Shown: positions 1 through 57,795 of the stretch, in pieces
Position numbering within the stretch: the stretch's first letter is position 1
Layout: every line of letters begins with the position of its first letter
Assembly (NCBI GenBank): GCA_964016885.1
Contig: OZ024742.1
Location: forward strand, 302,870,001 to 302,934,000
From: Eledone cirrhosa
Taxonomy: Eukaryota
Length of the DNA: 64,000 nt
Reading direction: 5' to 3'
Notes under the pieces: generated by a model
Databases searched by the model: none
Seen by the model: only the letters and a program-made list of their open reading frames with translations
Told to the model about the DNA's origin: nothing
Translations under genes and position numbers: made by a program

Positions 1-127
1 GAGGGATGGGGGGAAGAAGGAAATAAAGGAAGCGATAAAAGAATAAAAAGATCTTACGTCTCCCTTGGCAAGCAGGGGTTACCCATTGCAAAATCGGCAA
101 GAGGTGTTATAGTCCTAGTCTACCGCC

Positions 128-1124
128 CCCCTCCCCTAGTCTAGGATAGATTTGGCGGACCCCGCTTTTTATAGCAGCTGGTTTAGACCCCGGATACTTG
201 CCCCCTTTTTCCGACCGCTCCCACTATTTTCCGTGCCTTCTATATTTCTTAGTGACATTTATGCCTTATTTTCTCGTTTCAGTTTTTCTTTCTTCGCTTT
301 TCTTTTGGGCGGGGTGGATTCTGAATTTATTTTTCCGTATTCTACCTTTACTTCGTACGAACTTTCATGTAGCTTGTATAAGACCTTTTAGAGTTAGCAT
401 TAGTATATATTTTTTTCGGGACTCAGAATTATTATCTCGTACTAGTTTACTTTGCTGCACTGGGTGGTTGCTGGCATTGTGCCCGGGATAGAAACCTTTA
501 TTATTTATTTCGTGGTAGTCTCTTTAGTATTTTGGCACCATTTGTTGACCCGTCACCGTATGATTTACGTACTTATACCTCTTAAAAGGGTCCTTGCCTA
601 TTCCGTCCCACCTAGTTCATTTACTTATTTCGTTATTTCTTTATTTTTTTCTTTACTTCTTTCTTTCTTTATTTATTTATTTATCTAGCCTAACAATAGC
701 TAGAGACTTAGGTCGTAGAACTTGCTTTACTTTTTTCTTTACACTTATTCGCTTTTCTTCACTCTCAGTATTTTTTCTTTCATATATATTTTTACCCCTC
801 ATTGTTCTAACTACCGTTCCGACTTCCTCCCCCTCCCCAGTATATTCTTTGACCTCATGCCCAGCTGTAGCTGGCACTACCAACGCTTGATTGAGTCTAC
901 TCCACCCCCTCCCCTCTTTCTCCTACTGGCAGGTTTAGCCACCATCTCCCCTACTAATTTGCAATCACAGAATTACTACTGACTTTTGACAATCACTTTA
1001 ACCATATATGGAATTACCCCTTGAGAAGATCGGCTATTTAAATACCAGGATAAATTTTCATTTAGTCCAGAATTAGCCGTCGAAACGGCTTGAGCTCAGC
1101 CGTCGGGGTCTTACTGGTTCCTAT
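128..1124 (+). repeat. 5' pseudo-LTR (direct repeat of 3662-4651)
   Basis: Near-identical to 3662-4651 with scattered substitutions and a 7-nt indel. Confidence 0.95.
1009..1122 (+). ncRNA. Type I hammerhead ribozyme, U3:A8 core variant, extended stem II
   Basis: Stem I ACCCC(1016-20)/GGGGT(1105-09); core TTGAGAA (1021-27); stem II GATCGGCTA...TAGCCGTC; GAAA (1082-85); stem III CGGCT/AGCCG around TGAGCTC; GTC cleavage triplet ending at 1104. Confidence 0.8.
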
Positions 1125-1362
1125 TACCCACTCTACACCCCAAGTATTGAGTACTTTGGTGCGTTATGGTCCACCTGGTTCCTTACCACATTTCCTTCGT
1201 TATCTAGCTCCTATTCCCGTAGTAGAGCACTTTCCGACCTTACCACGCCGTATCCAGACTTTTCCGCTAAGCTCAATTCCTTTCACCCGCACCATGCGAT
1301 AACACAACATTGACTTCTCTACCAAGAACATCCCAATCCCACCGAAAAAACTGTACCTTCGG

Positions 1363-3450
1363 ATGCTCACGCAAAAAATCGATCTATTTGCGAAAAGACT
1401 TAGATGGAGAACTTTTTTCTATGACAGATATTGCGACAACCAGGACTTCGGCACCAAGGAGAGATTCGGATTTATTACCTACAAATTTCCGCCCCCGAAC
1501 CCCTTGCTCTCACCCTTCGAGAATGACCTCTTCCAACTGGTCAAGAACATTAAATTTAAACCCAGACACAACCGATTCTTACAAAAACTCCGTAGCAACT
1601 TAACAGAGTATGATAACACCAATGACATCATGGTGCATTCGGATAAAACTGGGAACCTATACTTTGTCAACCCTGACAGATACCACACACTGATCAGGAG
1701 CAGCCTAAACTCCACCTATAAAAAGGCCAACCACTCTTGCATCGAGGACATAAATCGAGATGGACAACAAATTACCTCCAGCCTCGGGGTCGCCGACCGC
1801 ACGGAACCTCTAGACCCACGGACACCATACTTCACACTGAAGGACCATAAATCCGATTTTGACCGTAAACCCTCTATCAGGCTTATTAACCCAACGAAGT
1901 CCGACATAGGGAGAATCAGCAAAAAAATCCTAGACCGCGTGATACCAAAAGTCAAGCAACACGCCCGACTTAGCCTATGGATCAACACCCAGGAAGTAAT
2001 CTCATGGTTCAGCAATATGGAGGATAAACGAGACACTAAATTCATACAGTTCGACATAGAGAGCTACTATGCTTCAATCACCTTACCGCTACTTACTGCC
2101 GCCTTGGACTTCGCCGAAACACTTGTGCCCATCACCGACCAGGAAAGAAAAATCATCCTCCACGCCAGGAAGACAGTCTTACTCTTTGACGACTCTAAAT
2201 GGATAAAAAGAGCTCCCGACTCACCCTTCGACGTCAGCATGGGCGCCACGGATTCGGCGGAGGTCACAGATGTTATAGGATTATTCCTAATAGCCAAACT
2301 CACTGATATGTTTCCTGCATTCGGTGGTGGATTGTACCGTGATGATGGGCTCCTTACCCTTAAAGGGTACAACCCCAGTAGTACAGATCGGGTCCGGAAA
2401 CAATTAATCAGTTTCTTCCCCGACTGGGGATTTAAAATAACCCTACAAACGTCCCTGACGCGAGTAAACTTCCTGGACGTGACCCTCGACCTCGAAAACG
2501 ACCTGTACTACCCATACAGGAAACCTAATGACAACCTGCACTACATCTACCACCGATCAAACCATCCTAGGAACATCACAAACAACCTGGTCAAAAACAT
2601 CTCCCTCCGCATATCCCGTTTGTCAGCTAATGAGCGGATATTCGATGAACATGCGCCTTATTACAACCAGGCCCTCAAGCGGAGTGGTTTCCGGGAGGAA
2701 ATATCCTACTGTCCAACTCCCATTAGCGGAACCAGCAGGAGACACCGCCGCTCACGCAATGTAACATGGTTAAATCCTCCCCACAACGCAGAGGTGACAA
2801 CTCCCATCGGGAAACTATTCTTTAGGCTCATTGAAAAACACTTCCCACTACAACACCGCTACCACAACATAATTAACAAAAATACCATCAAACTCTCTTA
2901 CAGCACTACACCAAACTTCGTACAAAACATCGTCTCCTCTAACAACAAAAAACTCAACCCCGATGGCAGAAATAACCTAAATAGCAGTGGAGAACCGACC
3001 AGGAGGTGTAACTGTCCGGATAGATCCATTTGCCCACTCGACAATAGATGCAGAGACCGTAATGTGATCTACCAGTGCAACGTGAGGACGGATACCTCCA
3101 ACAAAGCCTATATAGGACTAACCGCCTGTGACTTCAAGACCCGGCTATACCAACATAGACATACCTTCCGAAACCCGGCCCGACGTCACGCCACTACACT
3201 TTCGGGCCACATATGGGACCTCAAGGACAACAACATGACCTATGATCTCACTTGGAGATTACTGTCCAGAGCCAATTCTTACACGGGAGGACGCCGTCCG
3301 TGCAATTTATGCTCGGAGGAAACTTTACAAATACTGTTTTCGACGGACCAACTCATAAACAAGAAAGATGAACTGGTTACTGCATGTAAACATAGATTGC
3401 GTAGGACTTACCTCGCCCTCAAACCCCATAATGACCCGGGGAGGGGGTAG
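1363..3450 (+). CDS. PLE reverse transcriptase - GIY-YIG endonuclease polyprotein (695 aa)
   Basis: RT motifs SDKTGN, IRLINPTKSDIGRISK, FDIESYY, VSMGATDSAE, LYRDDGL, VNFLDV; Cys linker CNCPDRSICPLDNRC; GIY-YIG VIY...YIGLT; C-terminal CNLCSEE and CKH. An in-frame upstream ATG at 1294 is followed by TAA at 1300. Confidence 0.95.
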   Translation: MLTQKIDLFAKRLRWRTFFYDRYCDNQDFGTKERFGFITYKFPPPNPLLSPFENDLFQLVKNIKFKPRHNRFLQKLRSNLTEYDNTNDIMVHSDKTGNLYFVNPDRYHTLIRSSLNSTYKKANHSCIEDINRDGQQITSSLGVADRTEPLDPRTPYFTLKDHKSDFDRKPSIRLINPTKSDIGRISKKILDRVIPKVKQHARLSLWINTQEVISWFSNMEDKRDTKFIQFDIESYYASITLPLLTAALDFAETLVPITDQERKIILHARKTVLLFDDSKWIKRAPDSPFDVSMGATDSAEVTDVIGLFLIAKLTDMFPAFGGGLYRDDGLLTLKGYNPSSTDRVRKQLISFFPDWGFKITLQTSLTRVNFLDVTLDLENDLYYPYRKPNDNLHYIYHRSNHPRNITNNLVKNISLRISRLSANERIFDEHAPYYNQALKRSGFREEISYCPTPISGTSRRHRRSRNVTWLNPPHNAEVTTPIGKLFFRLIEKHFPLQHRYHNIINKNTIKLSYSTTPNFVQNIVSSNNKKLNPDGRNNLNSSGEPTRRCNCPDRSICPLDNRCRDRNVIYQCNVRTDTSNKAYIGLTACDFKTRLYQHRHTFRNPARRHATTLSGHIWDLKDNNMTYDLTWRLLSRANSYTGGRRPCNLCSEETLQILFSTDQLINKKDELVTACKHRLRRTYLALKPHNDPGRG

Positions 3451-3661
3451 AACTATAACACCTCTTGCCGATTTTGCAATGGGTAACCCCTGCTTGCCAA
3501 GGGAGACGTAAGATCTTCTTTTTATTCTTTTATCGCTTCCTTTATTTCCTTCTTCCCCCCATCCCTCCTTAGTCCTTCTACCCCAGCTCTTCTTCTTTGT
3601 CGGCGTTTTTTCTCGCCCACCCGAGGCTGCCCTTTGGTCCCTTGTAGCCTCAGTACCCCCA

Positions 3662-4646
3662 CCCCTCCCCTAGTCTATGATAGATTTGGCGGACTCCGCT
3701 TTTTATAGCAGCTGGTTTAGACCCCGGATACTTGCCCCCTTTTTCCAACCGCTCCCACTATTTTCCGTGCCTTCTATATTTCTTAGTGGCACTTATGCCT
3801 TATTTTCTCGTTTCAATTTTTCTTTCTTCGCTTTTCTTTTGGGCGGGGTGGATTCTGAATTTATTTTTCCGTATTCTACCTTTACTTCGTACGAACTTTC
3901 ATGTAGCTTGTATAAGACCTTTTAGAGTTAGCATTAGTATATATTTTTTTCGGGACTCAGAATTATTATCTCGTACTAGTTTACTTTGCTGCACTGGGTG
4001 GTTGCTGGCATTGTGCCCGGGATAGAAACCTTTATTATTTATTTCGTGGTAGTTTCTTTAGTATTTTGGCACCATTTGTTGACCCGTCACCGTATGATTT
4101 ACGTACTTATACCTCTTAAAAGGGTCCTTGCCTATTCCGTCCCACCTAGTTCATTTACTTATTTCGTTATTTCTTTATTTCTTTCTTTACTTCTTTCTTT
4201 CTTTCTTTATTTATTTATCTAGCCTAACAATAGCTAGAGACTTAGGTCGTAGAACTTGCTTTACTTTTTTCTTTACACTTATTCGCTTTTCTTCACTCTC
4301 AGTATTTTTTCTTTCATATATATTTTTACCCCTCATTGTTCTAACTACCGTTCCTCCCCCTCCCCAGTATCTTCTTTGACCTCATGCCCAGCTGTAGCTG
4401 GCACTACCAACGCTTGATTGGGTCTACTCCACCCCCTCCCCTCTTTCTCCTACTGGCAGGTTTAGCCACCATCTCCCCTACTAATTTGCAATCACAGAAT
4501 TACTACTGACTTTTGACAATCACTTTGACCATATATGGAATTACCCATTGAGAAGATCGGCTATTTAAATACCAGGATAAATTTTCATTTAGTCCAGAAT
4601 TAGCCGTCGAAACGGCTTGAGCTCAGCCGTCGGGGTCTTACTGGTT

Positions 4647-4651
<5 letters not shown>
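3662..4651 (+). repeat. 3' pseudo-LTR (direct repeat of 128-1124)
   Basis: Direct repeat; ends at TTCCTA followed by (TA)n. Confidence 0.95.
4536..4649 (+). ncRNA. Type I hammerhead ribozyme (U3:A8), copy in 3' pLTR
   Basis: Same as 1009-1122 except C>A at 4547, which breaks the stem I pair next to the core; predicted cleavage after 4631. Confidence 0.7.
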
Positions 4652-13286: not shown

Positions 13287-15391
13287 ATGGCTACAAAAAA
13301 GAATTTTCATAGGTCACTCCCACTCATTCCGTCTTCTTCTTCCTCAATCGTCACTACAGCAGAGAGAAGATTGTCTCTCTCCCTCCCTTCTCTAAATATG
13401 TCTCTCTCCCTCCCTTCTCTTTCGCAAGCGACGCCAGAAAAGAAAAATCACGTGCAAAGCGAGCAAGATTTCTCCACGACGACAACGACGAAAAAGGTGT
13501 GCGGGAAATACGAAAACCCATTTCATTCGTCTGACGTCAGAAATAATAGCAGTAGCAGCCGTAATAACTGCAGCAACAGTGACAAGGAAAACAACAGTAG
13601 CAGCCGCAACAGCATCAGCAGCAGCATAAACAACAACAGCATTAGCAGCAGCAGCAGCAGCAACAACAACCACAGCAACAGCGGCGGCGGCAGTAGTCGT
13701 AGTACCTGCAGCAACAACAAAAGTAACAGCAGCTCTGACGACAACAACAACAACAACAACAGCAGCAAAGAAAAACCAATCTCGTTTGCAGGTATCGCAA
13801 AGAACCTGGAAACCATCCTCATAACAAATGAGGAATTAGAGGAAGCGAAGAAGATGGTGTCAAAAACTGGACACCGAGCCATCTGCAAGGCAGCGGAAAA
13901 TTTTTTCGAAAGCCAACAGCACTGTACGGTCACGTACCGTACAGTAAGTACAAAATCCCGTAGGGTTGAAAGAGCCACAGAGGCTCAAATACAAAAAGCC
14001 TTGGGATCTGTGTGGCAGCGGAAAACGCACATCACTCGAGGCAAAAAATATGCCACCGTAGACGTACTTTTTGCCACACCCAGGAGGCAAAGGCTCAATC
14101 CTTAGTGACCCTAAGGAGCGAGGAAATGGTGTTGGTGCACTCCTACTGCGGGCAAAAAATTGTGAGGGTCAAACTGACCCACGTCCCCCCCGGGATGGCC
14201 CCTTCTTGGCTGGCCGCGTCTGTCCTCGTCGGAATCGAGGACAAAACAACAGTACTGCAAGTACAGAAAAAAGTAAGAGAAGATTGGGTCGGCACCTCCA
14301 TTGAGATGTTAATCCAAACCAACCAGGAGTGTATCGAAGCTATCCCGGATGTGATAGACTTCGATAACGGCACTCAACTGCCCATAAGTGTTGAGGGCAA
14401 ACGCCCGAAATGCTTTCGCTGTGGATCGAAGACTCACCTCAGGGCCTTCTGCAACGAGAAGACCCTGAGAAAGGAGAAAACCCCCCTCCTTCCGAATCCG
14501 GCTCCACAGCTACCAGCAACAGGACAAGCGGCAACCAGGAACGATAGGTCCGTGGCACCCATACCCACTCCACGGAAATCAAAAACAGCAGCAGCAGTGG
14601 AAATATTAACAACAACAACAGCAATACCAAATGCAGCTGCAACAGAGACTCCAGTGCAAACATCACCAACAACAACAAGTGAAAGAGTGGAGCTGGTACC
14701 CCTCCCCGACCTCACAGAATCAGACATGGAGTGTGAGGTGGGAGAGGGATGGCAAAAGGTCGTAAGAAGGCACAAACGCAGAAGCAGCGCATCGTCGCCT
14801 TTGAAAAGGGAGGAAAGAAATGAGAAAAGGGTAAAGTCTACTGCAAAGAGACCCACAGCAGCAACACCACCAACACCATCACCACCCACACTAGCACCAC
14901 CATCACCACCGGCGACAACCCCACCGCCAACAACACCTTCAACACCACCACCACAAGCACCAACATCGCAAACACAACAACAAAACACACACACCCAGCA
15001 ACAACGACAAGAAAATAGCAGAACCACACCCCACCCCCAGAAAAACAAATGCACGGCAATAAATACACACAACAAGAAACTAATGACTTACATAATTGAA
15101 CACACAGACATTTCACAACAGGACTACATAATACCAGCACCAATCAAAACGCCAACTAACATAAGACTGCTAAAAATAGCACAGAAACAATACACAAACA
15201 TTAAAACGAAATTCCCCAACGCAGTTGGTGATTTCAGGGACCTAGGAGGTACCATCAATCGAAGAGTATATTCAGACATTCTCTTAGAAGAGCCGACGAC
15301 CAGCCGAAGGGACGATTCAACGGTCCCTTCACCAGACGATCAAGTGAAAAGGGATGTAAAAACCATCCCTCCTCTACCAAAAGTACGGTAA
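13287..15391 (+). pseudogene. LINE ORF1 (gag-like, zinc knuckle), one frameshift near 14070-14100
   Basis: ATG at 13287; Asn/Ser-rich tract, ISFAGIAK; continues in ORF 14012-15391 with CFRCGSKTHLRAFC, WQKVVRR and a Pro/Thr-rich region. Confidence 0.82.
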
Positions 15392-15426
15392 GTGGTCTTT
15401 CCCATCTTTTCCACTCTATTTTAAAC

Positions 15427-18400
15427 ATGACCTCACTCAGAATAGGCAGCATAAATGCGCGTGGCTTGGGGTCGTCATGGAAGCAGGGTCACCTGCTCAA
15501 CGACCTCAGGTCACTAAACATAGATGTAGTGGCCATCAGCGAGACCAGAATCTCCGAAGCACGGGCCTTTGCACCGATCTTCGGCGGCTACGATGTGTAC
15601 GCATCTCCCAGCCGTCCTGGATCGGGTGGAGGAGTTGCTGTGCTTTTTCGGAGAGGTTTGGATCTCGCCATACGGGCCATCTTCCTGGACCCAGAGGGTA
15701 AGCTGGTGGTGCTGGACGTGACCAGCGGAGACGGGCAAGCTTTCAGGCTAGTGGCCGTCTATGCCCCGACAGGAGCAGGGCGGCCTGATTTCTTCCGGCG
15801 TCTGGAGACCTTTCTTGGAACGTCCCGCTCTTTAGTGTTAGTGGGCGACTGGAACGGGATCGTAGATGCACGCTGGGACTGTGTGGGATTAGCGGATAGG
15901 GGTGGAGGGTGCAAGAGCCTCACCAACCTGCTCAGGCGTTTTGAACTGTCTGACAGGTACCGATTGGATTTCCCGAATGTGCCAATGTGGACTTGGACAA
16001 ACCGCATAGGGTCATCCAGATCATATCTAGATAGATATAGATATAGATAGATATATATATATAGATATAGATATAGATAGATATATAGAGTATTTTGTAG
16101 GGAAATAGATAGGTCTAGCATAGGCTGTCCACAATTCAAGATAGTCAGCTACACGGACCACAAATTCGTGATCTGTGTGCTTGACTTAGATAGGCTTCAT
16201 AGACGAGGACCCGGCTACTGGAAGCTAAACGCGTCCTTACCAGCGCGCAAGGCCTACAGAGACCGGATTAGCGAACTAGTTAAGCGGGCGTTGACAGGGG
16301 CCATCGTCAACAACAAGTGGTGGTTTGCTCTGAAAAGAGCGATTAGAATAGAATCGATTAGGTTTAGTAAGGCTTTAGCAATAGAGAAAAATAGAGCAGA
16401 GGGAGAACTAGTTAGAAAATTAGACGAGGCGCTTAGCAAAGGCATTGCGACCGACGTGCTTGCGGCGAAATTGGCCCTTGGCCAATTCTTCAATGCAAAG
16501 CACGAAGGCTGCGTTGTCAGAGCTAGGGTGCGTGCTCTCAGACACGAGGGGACGAAAGCCGTTCAATGGGCCCGAGTGGCGGAGGCGCGTCGTGGCAACA
16601 AAGCCACGATCCGGTCTTTGGTGGACCACGACGGGCGCATGCTACTCGATCCCGGGCAAATGTGTGAAGCTTTTCAGCGACACTTCGCTCAGCTGTTCGG
16701 GGGCAGCGGGGGGCCGGGTAGAGGGATGGACTTTAGTGTCTACCTCGACGGACTGCCGCGGCTCTCGGCCACTGAGGCGAAGTGTTGCGAAAAGCCGATA
16801 ACAGCCGCTGAAGTAAGGGAGGCAATGACTGGCTGCACAAGGGGTAAATCGCCTGGTTTGGATGGTCTGCCCTATGAACTTTACGTACAGATGCCAGACT
16901 TGTTCGGAGGCCTCTTGGCGGACGTCTACTGCAACTGGCAACAGAACGGGAGAATTCCCAGTTCTGTGAGCCGAGGAGCGGTGGCACTGCTGAGAAAGGA
17001 TCCGAACAAGGGGGATAACATAGACAATTTCCGGCCCATAACTCTGCTAAACACAGAGTTTAAGATTTTGGCCAAGGTGCTAGCAAAGAGGTTGGCGCTT
17101 GTCGTTGGTGGTCTGGTGGGAGAGGCGCAGACATGCGCCATTCCCGACAGATCCATCCACGACAACCTCCACCTCATGCGATACATCGTAGAGAGGGTAG
17201 CTAGGGAACCTGGCACGGGTGGGTCCTTGATCAATTTAGATCAGTCGAAAGCTTTCGATAGGGTCGACCATCGTTACCTAACGGCAGTCCTGAGGGCGGC
17301 TGGCTTTGGGCCCGTCTTCAGAGGCTGGATCGCTGCCATGCACAGCGACATCTGCTCTGTGGTGAGAGTGAACGGTCACCTGTCGGAACCGTTCAACATC
17401 ATGCGCTCGGTCCGCCAAGGATGTCCCCTCTCGTCCCTCTTGTACGTATTGACTCTCGAGCCATTACTGCACAAACTGGAGACGTTGAGGGGAGTCCCGC
17501 GCGAACTAGGATGCGGAAGATCCGTGTCAGCATATGCGGACGATGTCACCGTAGTGGTGTCGAACGCCAAACACATCGAGGCGATCGGCACTACACTAAG
17601 AGAATACGAAGCGGTGACAGGAGCAATGATCAACCAGGAAAAGTCAGTGGGCCTGCAGCTCGGCACCTGGAGAGGCAGGTCCATGCCGTCCAACAGCGTC
17701 GTCGGGCGCTGGACGGACGGACCGGTTAAATTGCTAGGGGTCTGGTTCGGTCCGGACCTCCAGACGGACAAAAACTGGGACGAGGTGACGAGCAGGGTGG
17801 CTTCTCTCACCCAGAAATGGGCGGAGAGGAAGCTATCCCTGAAAGGTCGAGCGGAGGTGGCTAACGCGTACATCGCGTCTGTCATCTGCTACCGCCTAAC
17901 CGTCGTACCTTGTCCTAAGCCTCGCCTGACTGCGCTGGAGCGTTTGCTCTTTCGCTTTTTGTGGAAGGGACGTGCTCCGATGGTCAGGCGGTCCATCTGT
18001 TGTCAACACCCGCTACGTGGAGGGCTGGGCATGCCGTGGCTGATGATGCGCAGGCACGCGCTCAGGCTACGACATCTCCACCTCTTCCTCGACGGTGATC
18101 AGGTGTGGTCGCCGTTTGCTAGACGCGTTTTTCCCCAGCTCGTTTCCTTGACGGAGCTGCAGTCCTGGGTCAAGCGAAGACCGAGAGGGAGCGCCTGGAG
18201 ACTGGAATGTCTTCAGGCGCTCACAGCCCTCGACCAATCGGGCAATGTGATCGGTGGAAACTCCACCTCGGCGTTCTATAGAGGATTAGTGGAGGGGAAG
18301 AGCGACGACGTACTTGGGGAAACTCTAGGCGTCGACGAAAATCAACTAGCCAATCTCTTCGGAAGAACTTTCGGGCCAGGGCCTATGGACAACTTCCAGA

Positions 18401-18900
18401 AATCTCTGGCCTGGCAGTGCTACCGAGGAGCCTTGCCAGTTCGGGATAAACTCTACAGGCATGGAGGTGCCGTCAGCCGGGCATGTCCGAGATGCGCGCA
18501 GAGCGACGAAACCGTCCTGCACGCACTCGTCCAGTGTCCGAAAATTGCTGACTTGTGGGTTTATGTCGAACACCTGCTGTCGCGTTTAGGACGGATCCAG
18601 CTATCATCTGAGTCTATCGTGAGGATTGCCCCGCCCTCCTCCTTTAGCCGGGAAGGGCAGGCAGTTTTTATCTGTCTGGTGGCCATGGCGAAAGAGATAG
18701 TATGGTGGACACGTTTGAAAGGGCTGAAGACGAGCACTTACCTCTTCGGTGATGCTCTGATTGACTTTTTCAAATTTCATTTGAAAAGGAAAATCAGAGT
18801 AGAGAAGGAAGTGCTCTCTTCCCAGCATTTTGTTGAAAGATGGGTGAGAGAAGCAAGAATGGCCCGAGTGAATGGGCCGACTCTGAGTATATATCTGTAA
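15427..18900 (+). pseudogene. LINE ORF2: AP-endonuclease + RT + zf-RVT, broken by a 54-nt microsatellite insertion
   Basis: GSINARGL, SETR, VYAP, VGDWN, SYLDR, TDHK, PGYWKLN, KSPGLDGLP, NFRPITLLN, DQSKAFDRVDH, VRQGCPLS, AYADD, CPRCAQSDETVLHALVQC; ORFs 15427-16050 and 16168-18900 are in the same frame. Confidence 0.93.
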
Positions 18901-41378: not shown

Positions 41379-41454
41379 ATTACCTCATTACCAGAGTTTT
41401 CCCGAATAAGACGAATACAAGAAACGTCCTTATTCGTTCGTCAGACAAGGCAAT
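41379..41454 (-). ncRNA. Hammerhead ribozyme in the tailed pLTR (stem III mutated)
   Basis: Reverse complement of 45524-45599, with GAAAACTCTGG instead of GAAACCTCTGG. Confidence 0.65.
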
Positions 41455-42254
41455 TTAAAACATAGTGAAATATTTGAAAAATCTCCTCAAGAAAGGTAAA
41501 AGTTTAACGGGCAAAAAAGAAAAAAAGTAAAAAAAAATATATATAAATAAAAGTAATGCAAGAGATATCTAAAAATAAAATAAGGAAATATAGTAAGGGT
41601 ATGTGTATAAATGTGTGTATATGCACCTACAAATGTACATATGTGTGTATGTACAAATGCATGTGTATAGTGAAAAAATGTGTGCGTAAGCATATCAGGG
41701 CAAGCATATCAGTGTATGTGTGACCACAAATACGTATATAATATATGTTGAAAAAATAAATTGTAAGATAATAGAGTTAGCGTACATACAGACTCAGAGA
41801 CTAAGGATTGAAATATATACACATACAAGTATGAAAGCACGCGTATAAACACACACACACGCGCAACCACATACATGCATGTGATATATACAGGGAAGGG
41901 AGTGTATCAGTCAAAGCAGTGTCAGGCTGAAGATCGATGCATATATAAAAATATGAAATATGAAAATAAAAAAATTAAATCAAAGAGAAAGTAAGAGGGA
42001 GGGGTTATCAATTATAAAGTAACACTAGAAAAATAGAAAACATACAGAGGTTCGTATACACACATATATATATATAAATATATATATAAATACGTACAGA
42101 CAAAAGCACATACATGCGTACATACATACAAAAACGCTCATACATACACACGAAGCACATATATATACATACACGTACATCTAATCACACACACGCACGC
42201 GACCATATATATATATACATATATATACACACATATATATATATATATATATGA

Positions 42255-42993: not shown

Positions 42994-45523
42994 TATATAT
43001 ATATATATATATACATATACACACACACACATGTATATCAGTATGTAAAAAACATAGATATAAAACACACATACACACACACATATACACATACACGCGC
43101 ACATACGAATGCATTCGTATACATATACAAACACGTATACACACATATGCACACTTACACGCATACATACAATATAAAAACCAGCCGTATGAATAAATGA
43201 GTACAAATTATACGCAAGTAAACATACATAAAAGCGGCTGAGGGACAACAGAATATATCTGGGGTTTAAAACGCAAGTGACATGTGGTATCAGGTAGTGA
43301 AAGAAAAGGGGGAAGTAAAATATGTAAAATTGTGAAGATATAAAGTAAGTGAATCAAAAAGAAGGGGGGTGGGGGGTCACTGGTGGATGTGAAGTAAAAA
43401 TAAAGTTAGAAATTAAAATAAAAGTAAATCAGAAGGAGAAGTCTGTAAAGAAGGTAAGTTAAGGAAAGTGAAGAACAAGAGTCTATGGAGGATAAGTATC
43501 TGAAAGTGAGTTAAGTTTATATGAGTTGGAAAGCAAGTGTGATTTCATATGTGGGCAACTGGTGAACATTTCTGTTTTTGTATTTAGGCAGGTCTTTGGT
43601 GATTTAAAGTTCTGTAAAATCCAATATTTTTCACTTATGCAGAGTGCGCATCTTCTTGTTCCTCTTGCATATTCTTTAGATTGGTTCAACATTGACCAAT
43701 CTAATTTATATTGGATACCTTGGTCTTTCAAATCCCATATTCTGCTAGCCAGAGCTGTTGTAAATCTTTTTTCAGGATGTTGGAAAGATGCGACATGTGT
43801 GTAATAACGCGTTTTGAATTTGTCTTGAGTCATACCCACATATCGTTCGCTGGTGGCTGGTAGATTGTTGCTGGTGGTTGTCACTTTAGCCGCATATACA
43901 ATGGCTTTGGTGTTGCATTTACCTTGTAATGGGCATTCACCTTTGACTCTACAGGAGCAATTTTGATGTTCTCTGGGTATTTTCTTATTGAAGATATAAG
44001 ATTTAATAGGGGGACCGCAGGAGTAGCTGATTTTGACACAGTTTCAATTGAAGATCTTATAGTATCTATGTGCTCTAGGGAAATGTTTATCTAAGAGCTC
44101 TAGGAATTTTTTGCCTACATTAGTTTTAACTGCTAATGAGTAGGGTGTGCGTGAACCAGATTATTTTTCTTTTCCTATTATTATGTTTAAAGGAGTTAGT
44201 ATTGTTGGGTATGTACTTAATCGATTCGCTAAATCCGCTATTTTGAAGGGCTTTATTATAGTAGGGGGATGCCTTATTGAAAATAGCTTCTGAGGAAGAG
44301 AGGGTGGAGATGCTACGGCTAATATTAGGGATAAGATTTTTGAAAATTATAGGAGGATGGTAAGAGCCTTTATTTATATATTTTAAATTTTAATTAGGTT
44401 TATGGTGCGGTTTATAAGAAGCAGTAGGCAGATCTAGGTTTATATCTAGAAAATTAACATTAGAAAGGTTAGTGTCAATGGTAATTTTAAGATTAAAACT
44501 AGCGAAGGTTTTTATTAAGTCTTTCTTGAAGTTATGGCCTATAGTGGTATGGGAAAGTAGTAGACCATTGTCGCAATAAAGCCCAAAGGTATGGTTAGAG
44601 AATTTCTCTTTAAGTGTGTGTAGGAGGAATAGGCCGACTAAATCACACACGTCAGCACTGTAAAAAGAACCCATTGAGACATCGAATGGGTTCTCTGGGT
44701 TAGATTTTTTTACCCAAGTGTCATTATTAGTAAATATATATATATGGTCGCGTGCGTGCGTGTGATTAGATGTAGATGTATGTATATATATGTGCTTCGT
44801 GTGCATGTATGTGCGCTTTTGTATGTATGTACGCATGTATGTGCTTTTGTCTGTACGTATTTATATATATATTTATATATATATATGTGTGTACGAACCT
44901 CTGTATGTTTTCTATTTTTTCTAGTGTTACTTTATAATTGATAACCCCTCCCTCTTACATTCTCTTTGTTTAATTTTTTTATTCTCATATATTTTTTCAT
45001 TTTTTCATTTTCATATTTTATATTTTTATATATGCATCGACCTTCAGCCTGACACTGCTTTGACTGATACACTCCCTTCCCTGTATATATCACATGCATG
45101 TATGTTGTTGCGTGTGTGTGTTTATACGCGTGCTTTCATACTTGTATGTGTATATATTTCAATCCTTAGTCCCTGAGTCTGTATGTACGCTAACTCTATT
45201 ATCTTACAATTTCTTTTTTCAACATATTTTATATACGTATTTGTGGTCACACATACAATGATATGCTTGCCCTCATGTATGTACTTACGCACACATTTTT
45301 TCACTATACACATGCATTTGTACATACACACATATGTACATTTGTAGGTGCATATACACACATTTATACACATACGCTTACTATATTTCCTTATTTTATT
45401 TTTAGATATCTCATTAATTTTTAGATATATCATTAATTTTATTCATATATATATATATATATTTTTTGCCCATTAAACTTTTGCCTTTCTTGAGGAGATT
45501 TTTCAAATATTTCACTGTTTTAA

Positions 45524-50291: not shown

Positions 50292-50319
<28 letters not shown>

Positions 50320-50322
<3 letters not shown>

Positions 50323-50492
50323 AAATGTTAAACCCCGACGGCAGAGCTCAAGCCGTTTCGGCGGCTATTTCTGGACTAAATTAGAACTTTTTGGGGGTTT
50401 AACATTTTCCTATTACCCACTATACTACCCTAAGTATTGTGTACTCTGGTGCGTTATGGTCCATCTAGTTCCTTACCACACCTCCTTCGTTA
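50320..50492. mobile_element. Hairpin mini-PLE: inverted hammerhead 3' half + forward pLTR tail
   Basis: 50320-50381 is the reverse complement of ~1060-1122 (diverged); 50394-50492 is homologous to 1105-1202; TA flanks. Confidence 0.85.
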
Positions 50493-50712
50493 TATGTATA
50501 TATATATATAAAGTCAAAATGAATGAAGCAATACTCATTTAGGCTTGACATTAAGGCTGAATATAGAAATGTTTACCTCAATGAAATTCAGGATTCAGAA
50601 TCTTTATAATTGTTCTCCCTTTACAGTTCCACGTTGCATATAGGTAGATTGAAAGACTTTTGAATGCATCCTGTTTTTAAAATATAGAATTATTTGCTAT
50701 CATTATAAATAT

Positions 50713-54709: not shown

Positions 54710-54953
54710 GTTATCAAGACAGTTATTGCTCCAACCAGTGAATTTACCTTTGATAACTATACTAAATATATATACACTCATTAACACACGTAATACACTT
54801 TATAAATCTATAGAACAAACGCAAGCAATCATTGAAAGCCTTATGTGTAAACAATGCACGCGGAACTCAAAGCTCCTAGTGGACAAGTTCATCGGATTCC
54901 AAACTCGTAAAAAATTACATTCGTAAAAACCGATATATATATATATATATATA

Positions 54954-55151
54954 TAGGAAAAGGTATGACCCCGACGGCAGAGCTCAAGCCATTCCGACGG
55001 CTATTTCTGAGTCCAGAGAATAAGCCGTCGAAACAGCTTAAGCTCTGCCGTCGGGGTCATGCCTTTTCTTATTACCCACTCTACTACCCTAAGTATTGAG
55101 TATTCTGGTGTGTTATGGTCCATCTGGTTCCTTACCACAATTCCTTCATTA
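54954..55151. mobile_element. Hairpin mini-PLE, second copy
   Basis: Inverted arm 54954-55009 and forward arm 55010-55151 (hammerhead 3' half + ~80-nt tail homologous to 1065-1202); (TA)n on both sides. Confidence 0.87.
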
Positions 55152-55445
55152 TATATATATATATATATATATATGTGTACATACGTGTTCATATATCAGT
55201 TTCAATAACGTAATGAGGCAAACTCATAAATTGTCAATCCTGGTCTGTCTCCAGATTTCTGGTAAGAAATTATATAAAATTCTCGTTTTCTTCTCATTTC
55301 TCCTCATCAGTAACCAATCAGCAATTCGAAAACATTAAAGTCTAACTATTTCCTGTCAGATAAAGGTATATAATAAATTTTCTCTAGTCTGACTCCCACC
55401 ATACATTTTACATTATGCTGGGGAGTATGTCATATATATATATAT

Positions 55446-55566
55446 AGGAAAAAAGTCAGGACCCCGACAGCTGAGCTCCAGCTGTTTCGACAGCTAGATC
55501 CGAACGAAACCAGTAGTGTTAGGACGGTAGTGATCTAGCTGAACTTATCAAGGGGTACAGTCCATA
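55446..55566 (-). ncRNA. Type I hammerhead with U3:A8 core (UUGAUAA) from a diverged PLE family pLTR end
   Basis: Minus strand: ACCCC-TTGATAA-GTTCAGCTAGATC...GATCTAGCTGTC-GAAA-CAGCTG-GAGCT-CAGCTG-TC-GGGGT..TTCCTA(TA)n. Confidence 0.82.
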
Positions 55567-55967
55567 TATGGACATGTAATCAAAACATAGCAGTAGTATC
55601 ATATCAAACAATCCTAAACATTGTTGTTTTTCTTTTCTGTCACGGGGAGTGGTCAAAGATTTTGGAATGTCGTATACATAGTTAAATTCCTTCATAGCGG
55701 CGGGTGGAGGTGAGGGTGGCTGGGCTTGGCTGTAGAACAAACGTGATGGAGTAAGATGACATTCTGATCTGTGGATGCCAGGCCACTCATGCGTTAAGGG
55801 AGAATTCTTTACAGCTATCTCTAAAGGGGGTAAGAACCTATGAGAAACAAGGAATATTGTAGAGTGAAAATGAATATACCAGGTCTCTCTCTATATATAT
55901 ATCTTCATACTGTCAACAATACCCACTTTGTGGTGTTCACATGACTTCATTATATTTCCGTTCAATA

Positions 55968-56160
55968 GGTCGGTGGATTGGCAGTATCGGTAGAGGGTCG
56001 GACGCCATGCTTTGACGCATAGAGTTACGGCCCTTGCTATTCTGAGTTCAAATCCCGCCGAGGTTAACTTTGCCTTTCATCCTTACGGGGTCGATAAAAT
56101 AAAGTACCAGTAATGAACTGGGTAATTGCTGGCCTTGTGCCAAAAGTAGAAACAATTATA
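55968..56160 (+). mobile_element. Nin-domain tRNA-SINE with TSD ATTATATTTCCGTTCAAT
   Basis: Consensus match; TSD at 55949-55966 and 56155-56172. Confidence 0.9.
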
Positions 56161-57795
56161 TTTCCGTTCAATTGTTTTAAAACTTTACTGATTATCTTCA
56201 GTTCATTCTGGAATGTTGATTAATTTGGAATTGTTGCATTTCAGAAGATTATTGAAGCTGAGCTTTATAAACCCTACAAAAAATAAACGAACGAATATAG
56301 CCGCTCAAATAACACTTTCTTACATTCTTTTTTATAATTGATGTTGTGCAAAACATGCGTTTGTGTAACATTCTGTACTAATTTACATAATTACTCTAAA
56401 TGGATTATTTTTCTAATTATCCACTTTTTCTTGTGGCTGTAGACTTGCTCGCGGGTATACTATATTCTCAGTTTTCTACTAATAAAGTTTATCAATAAAT
56501 TTACTAAACCTAAACCATTCTTCTCGAATAGATGTGTCCCTATACGCCATTTGTGTTAGTTACATGAAAAACTGTGGCGTAAAACGTTTAAGATTCATGC
56601 ATACATTCAATAAATAAATTTATCTGGTGGCACACAAGTCCTATTATCTCTACTTTGACACTTCCTTGTTCTGGCCGAAAATATTGCAAAACCAGGAGAC
56701 AGCTAGGTTAGTTATTTGTCATATAAAAGTATGTTTCATAGAGTTTTACCATGTCTATGTTTAGCCGCTGGAATTTTCTGGCTACCTGCGTTGTTCTACC
56801 TTCTGATCAAACAGATCAACCATGATTCTGAATGTTCGTAACAGTAACACTGCCTATGTGTAAATCACCCTTGAATATAAATCAGTACTTTCATTGTCAC
56901 CTTCTACAGTTTTGCTTTCTTGAATCATAGTACGTCGCAGTAGCTTAATCTATTGATATTTGAGGCACAATTTCTATCATATTTTACAGAAAACTGGATC
57001 ATCAAATCTCTACCTAAACTGCTTCTCAAATACGAATCTTCATCCATATGAGTCTTCACTGAAGCAGTCTTTGTAAAGATACTCGAAAACGTCACTTGTT
57101 ATTTAAGTAGATTTACAATTATATTCTCCCAGCTGGTTTCAACCACCAACTCTTCATCCCTACAGGTCGTGTGTAGAACAAGAAAATATAATGAAATGAT
57201 GAGGTATCGGTAGTGTATTGTATCATATGATATGGGGTTATACAGCTGTATCGCGATATACAGCTGAATGGCAGTATTGAACTATAGTGATATATGATTA
57301 GAATCATATAGCTTTACGGATGTACAGCAGTATTGCATTTGTGTGATACACGGCTGTACGAGAAGTATGCTATTATGGTGACGTGCATATGTCCGACAGT
57401 ATTTGGACTATAGTCATATACAGTTGTATGACTACTTTATAGTGAAAATATTGGTTATGGTTAGGATTAGTATAGCAGTATTGTACTATAGTGATATACA
57501 TCTCTATAACATGTTTGCCATTCCCTATGTACTTATAGGTAAATATCTGTTGACATATAAGGGACAGATGTGTAACTATTTCAAATGTAGCTTCTACATT
57601 AAGTACCACCCTCTTAGACTTCCCAAATAAAATGGTGTTATTATATTTCGGGTGTATCATCCATTATAAAGGGATCCAATATTTACAACCACACACGCGT
57701 TGGACATAGCCAATTTATATATTTTTCAATGCTTCAAGCAAACCACAATACACACACACTATATATTTTCAACCGTTCAACAGACTGGCAGAAGT

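Follow-up and report, generated by a model that had tools for sequence, protein, structure and literature searches.

A truncated hammerhead copy from a Penelope-like element lineage in Eledone cirrhosa in which mismatched 3–8 core pairs were amplified

The hammerhead sequence at positions 55446–55566 of the window (the whole stretch of 64,000 nucleotides analysed here) is, on balance, best read as an old, truncated copy from a lineage that kept the hammerhead fold while the 3–8 pair of its core moved, the ribozyme itself being slow and conditional. The same family has also multiplied with mismatched C·A and U·G cores, and fast self-cutting was likely not needed for its spread. The original prediction, made from the letters of the window, had instead taken this copy as independent confirmation that a U3:A8 core is fixed across at least two families of Penelope-like elements.

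The copy is a type I hammerhead with a U3:A8 core and lies at the end of a 443-bp truncated pLTR fragment (55886–55444, minus strand) that has no ORF of its own. Its parts are as follows.

55444..55886, minus strand: pLTR fragment, a 5'-truncated 3'-UTR/pLTR of the older subfamily S2 of a putative Hydra-type Penelope-like element (BLASTN to siblings and sequence)
55552..55556, minus strand: 5' arm of stem I, ACCCC (sequence, fold and covariation table)
55545..55551, minus strand: core positions 3–9, UUGAUAA, with U3 at 55551, U7 at 55547 and A8 at 55546
55489..55544, minus strand: stem-loop II, with G10.1 (55544) paired to C11.1 (55489), a 2x1 internal loop and a 31-nt loop II
55541–55532 and 55500–55491, minus strand: 10-bp helix of stem II (sequence and fold)
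55485..55488, minus strand: G12 A13 A14 A15.1 (GAAA), the commonest letter being the same in 10/10 subfamilies
55467..55484, minus strand: stem-loop III, arms 55484–55479 and 55473–55468, with U16.1 at 55467
55478–55473, minus strand: palindrome GAGCTC of loop III (sequence)
55466, minus strand: C17, with predicted cleavage 3' of this base (hammerhead numbering on the sequence)
55445..55465, minus strand: 3' arm of stem I, GGGGT (55465–55461), and 3' end of the insertion (sequence and sibling alignment)

Re-reading the minus strand from 55556 to 55445 bore out the letters and coordinates originally given for the motif. Three helices surround the core and both strand ends lie in stem I, as in type I topology. 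The conserved bases U4 G5 A6, A9, G12 A13 A14, A15.1:U16.1, H17 and G10.1:C11.1 are all present, and U3:A8, a published variant, takes the place of the canonical C3:G8 pair. RNAfold predicts a three-way junction, with a z-score of −2.86 for 55458–55558 (3/200 shuffles as good) and of −1.43 for the full 121 nt of the original prediction (18/200 shuffles as good). The statement that only position 7 differs within the core holds for positions 3–9 relative to the copy at 1016; outside them, position 10.2 has also changed from A to U, which is unpaired with U11.2, so that the 10.2:11.2 pair is lost. Position 10.2 is A, C or U depending on the subfamily. The GAGCTC palindrome was correctly described as retained, with 0/6 columns changing their commonest letter across ten subfamilies.

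TTCCTA(TA)n starts at 55450 on the minus strand, and the insertion ends about 20 nt beyond C17. The fragment is flanked by (TA)n/(GA)n at about 55887–55902 on one side and by (TA)n at 55432–55443 on the other, and it matches sibling loci with 78–91% identity over 357–461 bp (BLASTN). At seven positions the copy differs from the commonest letters of its own subfamily; it is decaying and, having no ORF, is likely inert. An abundant SINE-like repeat of about 190 bp, unrelated to the hammerhead, lies just upstream at 55972–56163 and in some ten other places.

Rfam gave no hammerhead match at the gathering score in the window, and at E<=10 the region around 55446–55566 produced no hammerhead and only two chance matches. 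A genome search returned 3,458 first-look hammerhead candidates (40 of them were scored), with siblings 88–93% identical, and a genome search with the 5' half of the hammerhead gave 6,162 exact matches, while its reversed control gave 0. Together these numbers rule out a chance match.

The window holds further copies of the same lineage, including a near-full young element.

1..4650, plus strand: near-full young copy of subfamily S9, a partial tandem, same lineage as the copy at 55446–55566
1303–3450, plus strand: frame of 715 aa with RT and C-terminal GIY-YIG (ORF list and motifs)
1016–1109 and 4543–4636, plus strand: complete hammerhead copies flanking the RT and GIY-YIG frame
54953..55155, no strand assigned: short inverted insertion of the same lineage, with 3' halves of the hammerhead only
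50318..50493, no strand assigned: another such insertion, also short and inverted, carrying one 3' half of the hammerhead plus the tail

An in-frame ATG lies at 1294, followed two codons later by a stop in the window copy. The hammerhead sits in the pLTR of an element with RT and GIY-YIG, the location known from Penelope-like elements. Within 1303–3447 we found RWR at 34, DKT at 114, CxCX5C at 569, CxxC at 667 and CxH at 695, but no CCHH, and insertions of the lineage sit in (TA)n. The accessible part of the Hydra clade definition lists RW[K/R], DKT, a CxCX5C linker, no CCHH, CxxC with CxH, and (TA)n insertion (PMC8557442). The element therefore appears to be a Hydra-type Penelope-like element, an assignment made from the motifs and the (TA)n target. 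A Neptune-like clade, our initial guess, was dropped after the motif test. The 715-aa frame had no Pfam match, whether at E<=0.001 or at E<=1. A non-LTR retrozyme, defined in the available text of bioRxiv 10.64898/2026.07.22.740005 as tandem units that each carry a hammerhead and have no ORF, was also considered and rejected: 55446–55566 is part of a solo pLTR fragment with no tandem array.

The window contains other elements as well. A second, distant family, also apparently Hydra-type, lies at 43483–44860 (minus strand) with an inverted part at 41480–42216; it shares 36–44% protein identity with the element at 1303 and has CxCX5C, CxxC and CxH. Beside it, at 41385–41455 (minus strand), is a canonical C3:G8 core string with a downstream GAAA, whose fold is not significant (z −1.36) and whose orientation is ambiguous. 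A near-intact LINE-type RT frame of 939 aa occupies 16081–18900 (plus strand), preceded at 13970–16050 (plus strand) by endonuclease-like and ORF1-like frames, all classed by eye.

Are the copy at 55446–55566 and the element at 1..4650 members of two families? From sibling loci we extracted 171 distinct complete copies, to which seven more were added (178 in all). On the basis of loop II they fall into eleven groups, S0–S9 and a side branch, S8t; ten were used as a ladder. These subfamily labels follow our own rules; of two misassigned copies one was moved, and S0 (12 copies) and S1 (5) are thinly sampled. The copy at 55446–55566 falls into S2 and the element at 1..4650 into S9. Linked ORF fragments are about 66–75% identical to the window protein in S2, 73–83% in S3, 78–88% in S4, 85–95% in S5/S6 and 95–98% in S9 (read by eye, with matches <60% set aside as another family or frameshifted). 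Siblings that continue past the insertion end share the downstream sequence of the element at 1016, and mismatch within subfamilies, 0.101 in S0 and 0.077 in S2, has dropped to 0.008 in S9. In a FastTree phylogeny of the 178 copies with positions 3, 7 and 8 masked, the subfamilies nest as a ladder, with local support of 1.0 for S3–S9, 1.0 for S4–S9, 0.93 for S5–S9 and 0.92 for S8–S9. S3 may be a side branch. A tree of the endonuclease region (38 sequences) was unrootable with distant outgroups, and its unrooted order alone was used. ORF identity, common downstream sequence and the nested tree all indicate that the two supposed families belong to one ladder-like lineage, of which they represent an old and a young stage. 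The agreement of the two copies is therefore not independent evidence, and the notion of an independent copy from a second family has to be abandoned.

The 3–8 pair does not behave as a fixed trait of this lineage. Among the 6,162 exact matches to the 5' half, 4,556 have U:A, 1,534 C·A, 60 U·G and 12 C:G, the last two being separated by a count of the matches listed. Genome-wide there is no association between the two positions (odds ratio 0.59, p=0.10). A Watson–Crick 3–8 pair is found in the copy at 55446–55566 but not throughout the family, which includes C·A and U·G subfamilies. When the search pattern leaves the core open, S6 has C3 in 95 and A8 in 100 of the 100 matches listed of 776, and S3 has G8 in 17/19; S0 has G8 in 9/10 and C3 in 3/10 copies. 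Along the ladder, position 8 reads G, A, A, G, A and then A throughout, while position 3 turns from U into C at S5 and is U again from S7. The two positions never change together, and they remain pyrimidine and purine. U:A is found both in old (S1, S2, S4) and in young (S7–S9) subfamilies.

In the masked tree, the C·A grade, with at least 1,534 copies, encloses the youngest U:A clade, which places C·A masters on the trunk. Nor is C3 an assembly error, since C occupies position 3 in 24% of depth in contigs of one public run, possibly from the source sample (contigs from two runs of other organisms gave 2 and 6 pieces, too few for use). C·A and U·G are thus subfamily states that were amplified, and not products of decay. 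From other Hydra elements and a few S0 copies we infer a C:G ancestor of the lineage. The return to U:A from C·A or U·G is also favoured by AT-biased mutation and does not by itself prove selection against C:G. The original view of U3:A8 was right in that the pair is not decay, being inherited in 38/42 S2 copies, but whole C3·A8 and U3·G8 subfamilies have amplified. A bolder and less probable reading is that a successful lineage went through nearly inactive cores (C·A on the trunk for at least 1,500 copies, U·G in two older subfamilies) with all other catalytic bases fixed, the mismatched cores either cleaving with the help of protein or belonging to a fold kept non-catalytically.

Outside positions 3 and 8, the core has been stable. 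Across the ten subfamilies the commonest letter changes in 0/12 of the remaining core columns against 38/63 loop II and flank columns (p=7e-5); 4/30 stem columns change. For the five core columns of the 5' half (U4, G5, A6, A9, G10.1) alone, the comparison is 0/5 against 38/63 (p=0.014). As the first search patterns required part of the core, the search was repeated with the core left free. Among the 100 matches listed of 5,075, U4-G5-A6 and A9 are kept in 97, A8 occurs in 100 and C3 in 22.

Covariation, which had been put forward as confirmation of the structure, was assessed in 24 hand-picked copies of the 178, all related sequences. Paired cells amount to 88.7%, compared with <=49.7% for slid-partner controls. 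Changes on both sides are seen at three stem II pairs and at none in stem I; in stem III they occur in the copy at 55446–55566 alone. The stem II pair singled out in the original prediction runs from A:U (S0–S2) through a mixture of G·U, G:C and A·C (S3) to G:C (S4 onward). Stem II therefore appears to covary between subfamilies, a real but small signal of about three events among related sequences. Taken together, the stem II changes and the unchanged core columns corroborate the idea that selection on the hammerhead fold acted along the master lineage.

Stem III is a different matter. Here the copy at 55446–55566 has A in place of G at 55483 and T in place of C at both 55480 and 55469; each of these is private, against a commonest letter held by 36–38 of 43 aligned siblings. 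All three are CpG-type transitions, and transitions run at 0.087 in CpG columns against 0.043 in other C/G columns. Because CpG faces CpG in the helix, ordinary decay on both arms mimics compensation. The stem III A:U pair is present in this copy alone among 59 aligned S0–S2 copies. Genome-wide, the double change occurs in 34 of 1,809 sibling copies against about 28 expected from single changes at 14/100 and 11/100 among the matches listed (p=0.14), and the exact triple in 8 of 1,809 against about 3 expected, an excess to be expected if copies differ in age or methylation. Across public contigs the family base at 55483 makes up 92% of depth, to which other subfamilies contribute. The supposed stem III covariation is thus a CpG artefact. 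The private changes do make the predicted fold cleaner than in siblings, with stem probabilities of 0.99/0.97/1.00 against sibling medians of 0.13/0.96/0.11, and this probably drew the eye in the first place. At 1101 (plus strand), as in most copies of the youngest subfamily (11 of 13), a G·U wobble has become fixed at 15.3:16.3 of stem III; this is the same pair that decayed to A:U in the copy at 55446–55566.

We next consider how such an element may use its hammerhead. Complete copies hold sequence on both sides of C17, indicating that the template was uncut or re-ligated at that hammerhead. Of the 171 3' ends, a TA run about 20 nt past C17 terminates 80, whereas 85 run on and 6 are of other kinds; a second 3' end lies near window 1203. 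In the window copy, the two alternative ends lie at 1124 and 1203 (plus strand), about 80 nt apart, and the tail is longer than the 30–40 nt of other Penelope-like elements. Helix III is neither absent nor unstable, being a 5-bp helix in a hairpin of −6 to −9 kcal/mol (predicted); its self-dimer is predicted at −27 to −31 kcal/mol, compared with −12 to −19 for two hairpins. In the copy at 1016–1109 (plus strand), stems II and III have the same five-base words in their arms. The 3' arm of stem II can therefore pair with the 5' arm of stem III, an arrangement that buries GAAA. This alternative hairpin is predicted to dominate in S5–S8 (median 0.52–0.80) and could possibly act as a built-in off state.

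Exact matches to the 3' half of the hammerhead number 48,059, compared with 6,162 to the 5' half, the patterns covering 31 and 21 places respectively. The 3' halves are often inverted pairs 30–70 nt apart, and most insertions begin in or just after loop II. This suggests that stem-loop II is a strong RT stop and an inversion site, giving rise to short palindromic inserts by the tens of thousands. Protein binding, rather than catalysis, could also be what conserves the unchanged 3' half.

In the mechanism we propose, the upstream repeat of the element RNA would be cut after C17, some 190 nt ahead of the ATG at 1294. The cut would free or circularise a unit, as proposed for other Penelope-like elements (PMC4209133), and would probably be helped by the element's protein or by two copies pairing via GAGCUC. 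The reverse transcriptase would begin about 20 or about 100 nt downstream of C17 and read across the uncut or re-ligated junction, and the downstream repeat would have to stay intact until copied. Since RT must cross such a junction, weak cutting would be tolerated or even favoured, and any pyrimidine–purine combination at 3–8 would suffice. Since the downstream repeat must survive, a slow ribozyme that depends on protein or on a partner copy would be favoured. The low in vitro activity and the need for dimers reported in the accessible text on hammerheads of Penelope-like elements (PMC4209133) agree with a slow ribozyme. So do the available findings on the anole element, where cleavage is protein-dependent and core mutants leave insertion in vitro unchanged (PMC11167929).

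A less probable reading, though the foremost of the alternatives, is that the fold is kept for a non-catalytic job, as a protein handle on the RNA or an RT landmark; with cleavage dispensable, a C·A core could sit on the trunk. The position of the C·A grade as ancestral to the youngest clade speaks for this, as do the surplus of 3' halves and the near invariance of stems I and III. In the anole element, the sections available report hammerhead mutants without effect on insertion in vitro, so that cleavage was dispensable there, and no RNA-seq ends at the cut site (PMC11167929). In the accessible data of a pairwise scan, moreover, all 3–8 changes except the G:C swap were low in activity (PMC9901934), so C·A may be dead and the fold retained for another purpose. 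The five unchanged 5'-half core columns and the pyrimidine–purine rule at 3–8, however, fit a core that still has to fold.

It is rather improbable that the mismatch is rescued, either by C3 pairing with G7 in a shifted register (CUGA-GA-A-G, with position 7 missing and one extra base before 10.1) or by U:A RNA that binds C·A transcripts by way of the unchanged stems I and III and cuts them in trans. Metazoan hammerheads in Penelope-like elements typically have such an extra base between 9 and 10.1, as far as the available text goes (PMC4209133). C3 and G7 arise at the same step of the ladder, G7 accompanies C·A in 95 of the 100 matches listed, and the predicted self-dimers of stem-loop III are more stable than two hairpins. 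On the other hand, the C3–G7 link is one phylogenetic event, G7 persists after C3 reverts, and the U·G of S3 is left unexplained. Further, the three-base turn of the shifted register is unlikely to place the general acid, which counts against this rival.

That U3:A8 is fixed and catalytically required, with covariation of stems II and III in an independent second family as its confirmation, is very improbable. U:A is indeed the commonest state, it recurs in old and young subfamilies, and stem II does covary; yet there is one lineage, 3 and 8 show no association, C·A and U·G subfamilies exist, and the double change in stem III is no commoner than chance would have it. The C·A and U·G copies could be thought passengers of U:A masters, but their own diagnostic flanks and nested position argue against it. 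Chance or fully decayed sequence without structural selection can hardly be entertained: the lack of an Rfam match and the seven differences of the copy at 55446–55566 are outweighed by the pLTR position, the thousands of copies, the excess of paired cells and the core conservation.

How does this lineage compare with known systems? Natural U3–A8 hammerheads have been in print since 2011, as variants active in vitro (Perreault et al. 2011, PMC3088659), and in Penelope-like elements since 2014, as minimal hammerheads of the Cercyon elements of Schistosoma mansoni with about 1,300 matches (Cervera and De la Pena 2014, PMC4209133). In the accessible parts of the latter, the hammerheads resemble ours in being type I in the pLTR, with U3–A8, a long helix II, G10.1–C11.1 and a palindromic loop III, and in occurring mostly as solo truncated copies in many subfamilies with compensatory changes. 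They differ in their small palindromic helix III, in place of which our lineage has a 5-bp stem III with a 9-nt loop and a loop II of 28–31 nt, and in the extra base between 9 and 10.1, which our lineage does not have. The Results/Discussion of PMC4209133 report no C·A or U·G cores, which are amplified here. Likewise, the part of PMC3088659 available describes the same compensatory swap in paired form only, whereas here the unpaired single-step states were amplified. Natural, amplified C·A or U·G cores did not turn up in the literature covered, a weak negative given partial coverage of the relevant papers.

The Hydra clade (Craig et al. 2021, PMC8557442, accessible parts) shares the protein motifs, the (TA)n target and a sense-strand hammerhead at the 3' end. 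In its file S2, every Hydra hammerhead is C3:G8, including that of the one cephalopod family listed, which has different stems, so our lineage appears to have a derived core relative to other Hydra elements. Similarly, the accessible description of the PAc Poseidon element of the green anole (Frangieh et al. 2024, PMC11167929) includes a hammerhead near the ORF start, two 3' ends and an uncut RNA template, but PAc belongs to a different clade, has a canonical C3:G8 core and has a tail of 30–40 nt versus about 80 nt here. The single mutants of PAc described there are C3G and G8C, not C·A or U·G. The function of the hammerhead in Penelope-like elements is called unclear in the available text of PMC8557442.

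The original claim adds little to what was known, as U3:A8 in Penelope-like elements is in print and the stem III signal is an artefact. It does expose a trap: in a two-copy comparison of a CpG-rich hairpin, CpG decay looks like covariation. The less expected result is a trunk lineage that amplified with a mismatched 3–8 pair. If the mismatched cores cleave with the element's protein, they would widen the rules for the hammerhead core; otherwise, the fold would be kept non-catalytically. Either way, the genome provides a natural, age-ordered series of all four 3–8 states (C:G, U·G, U:A and C·A) in a scaffold that is fixed elsewhere, which lets one ask whether cleavage is needed and how much 3–8 mismatch is tolerated.
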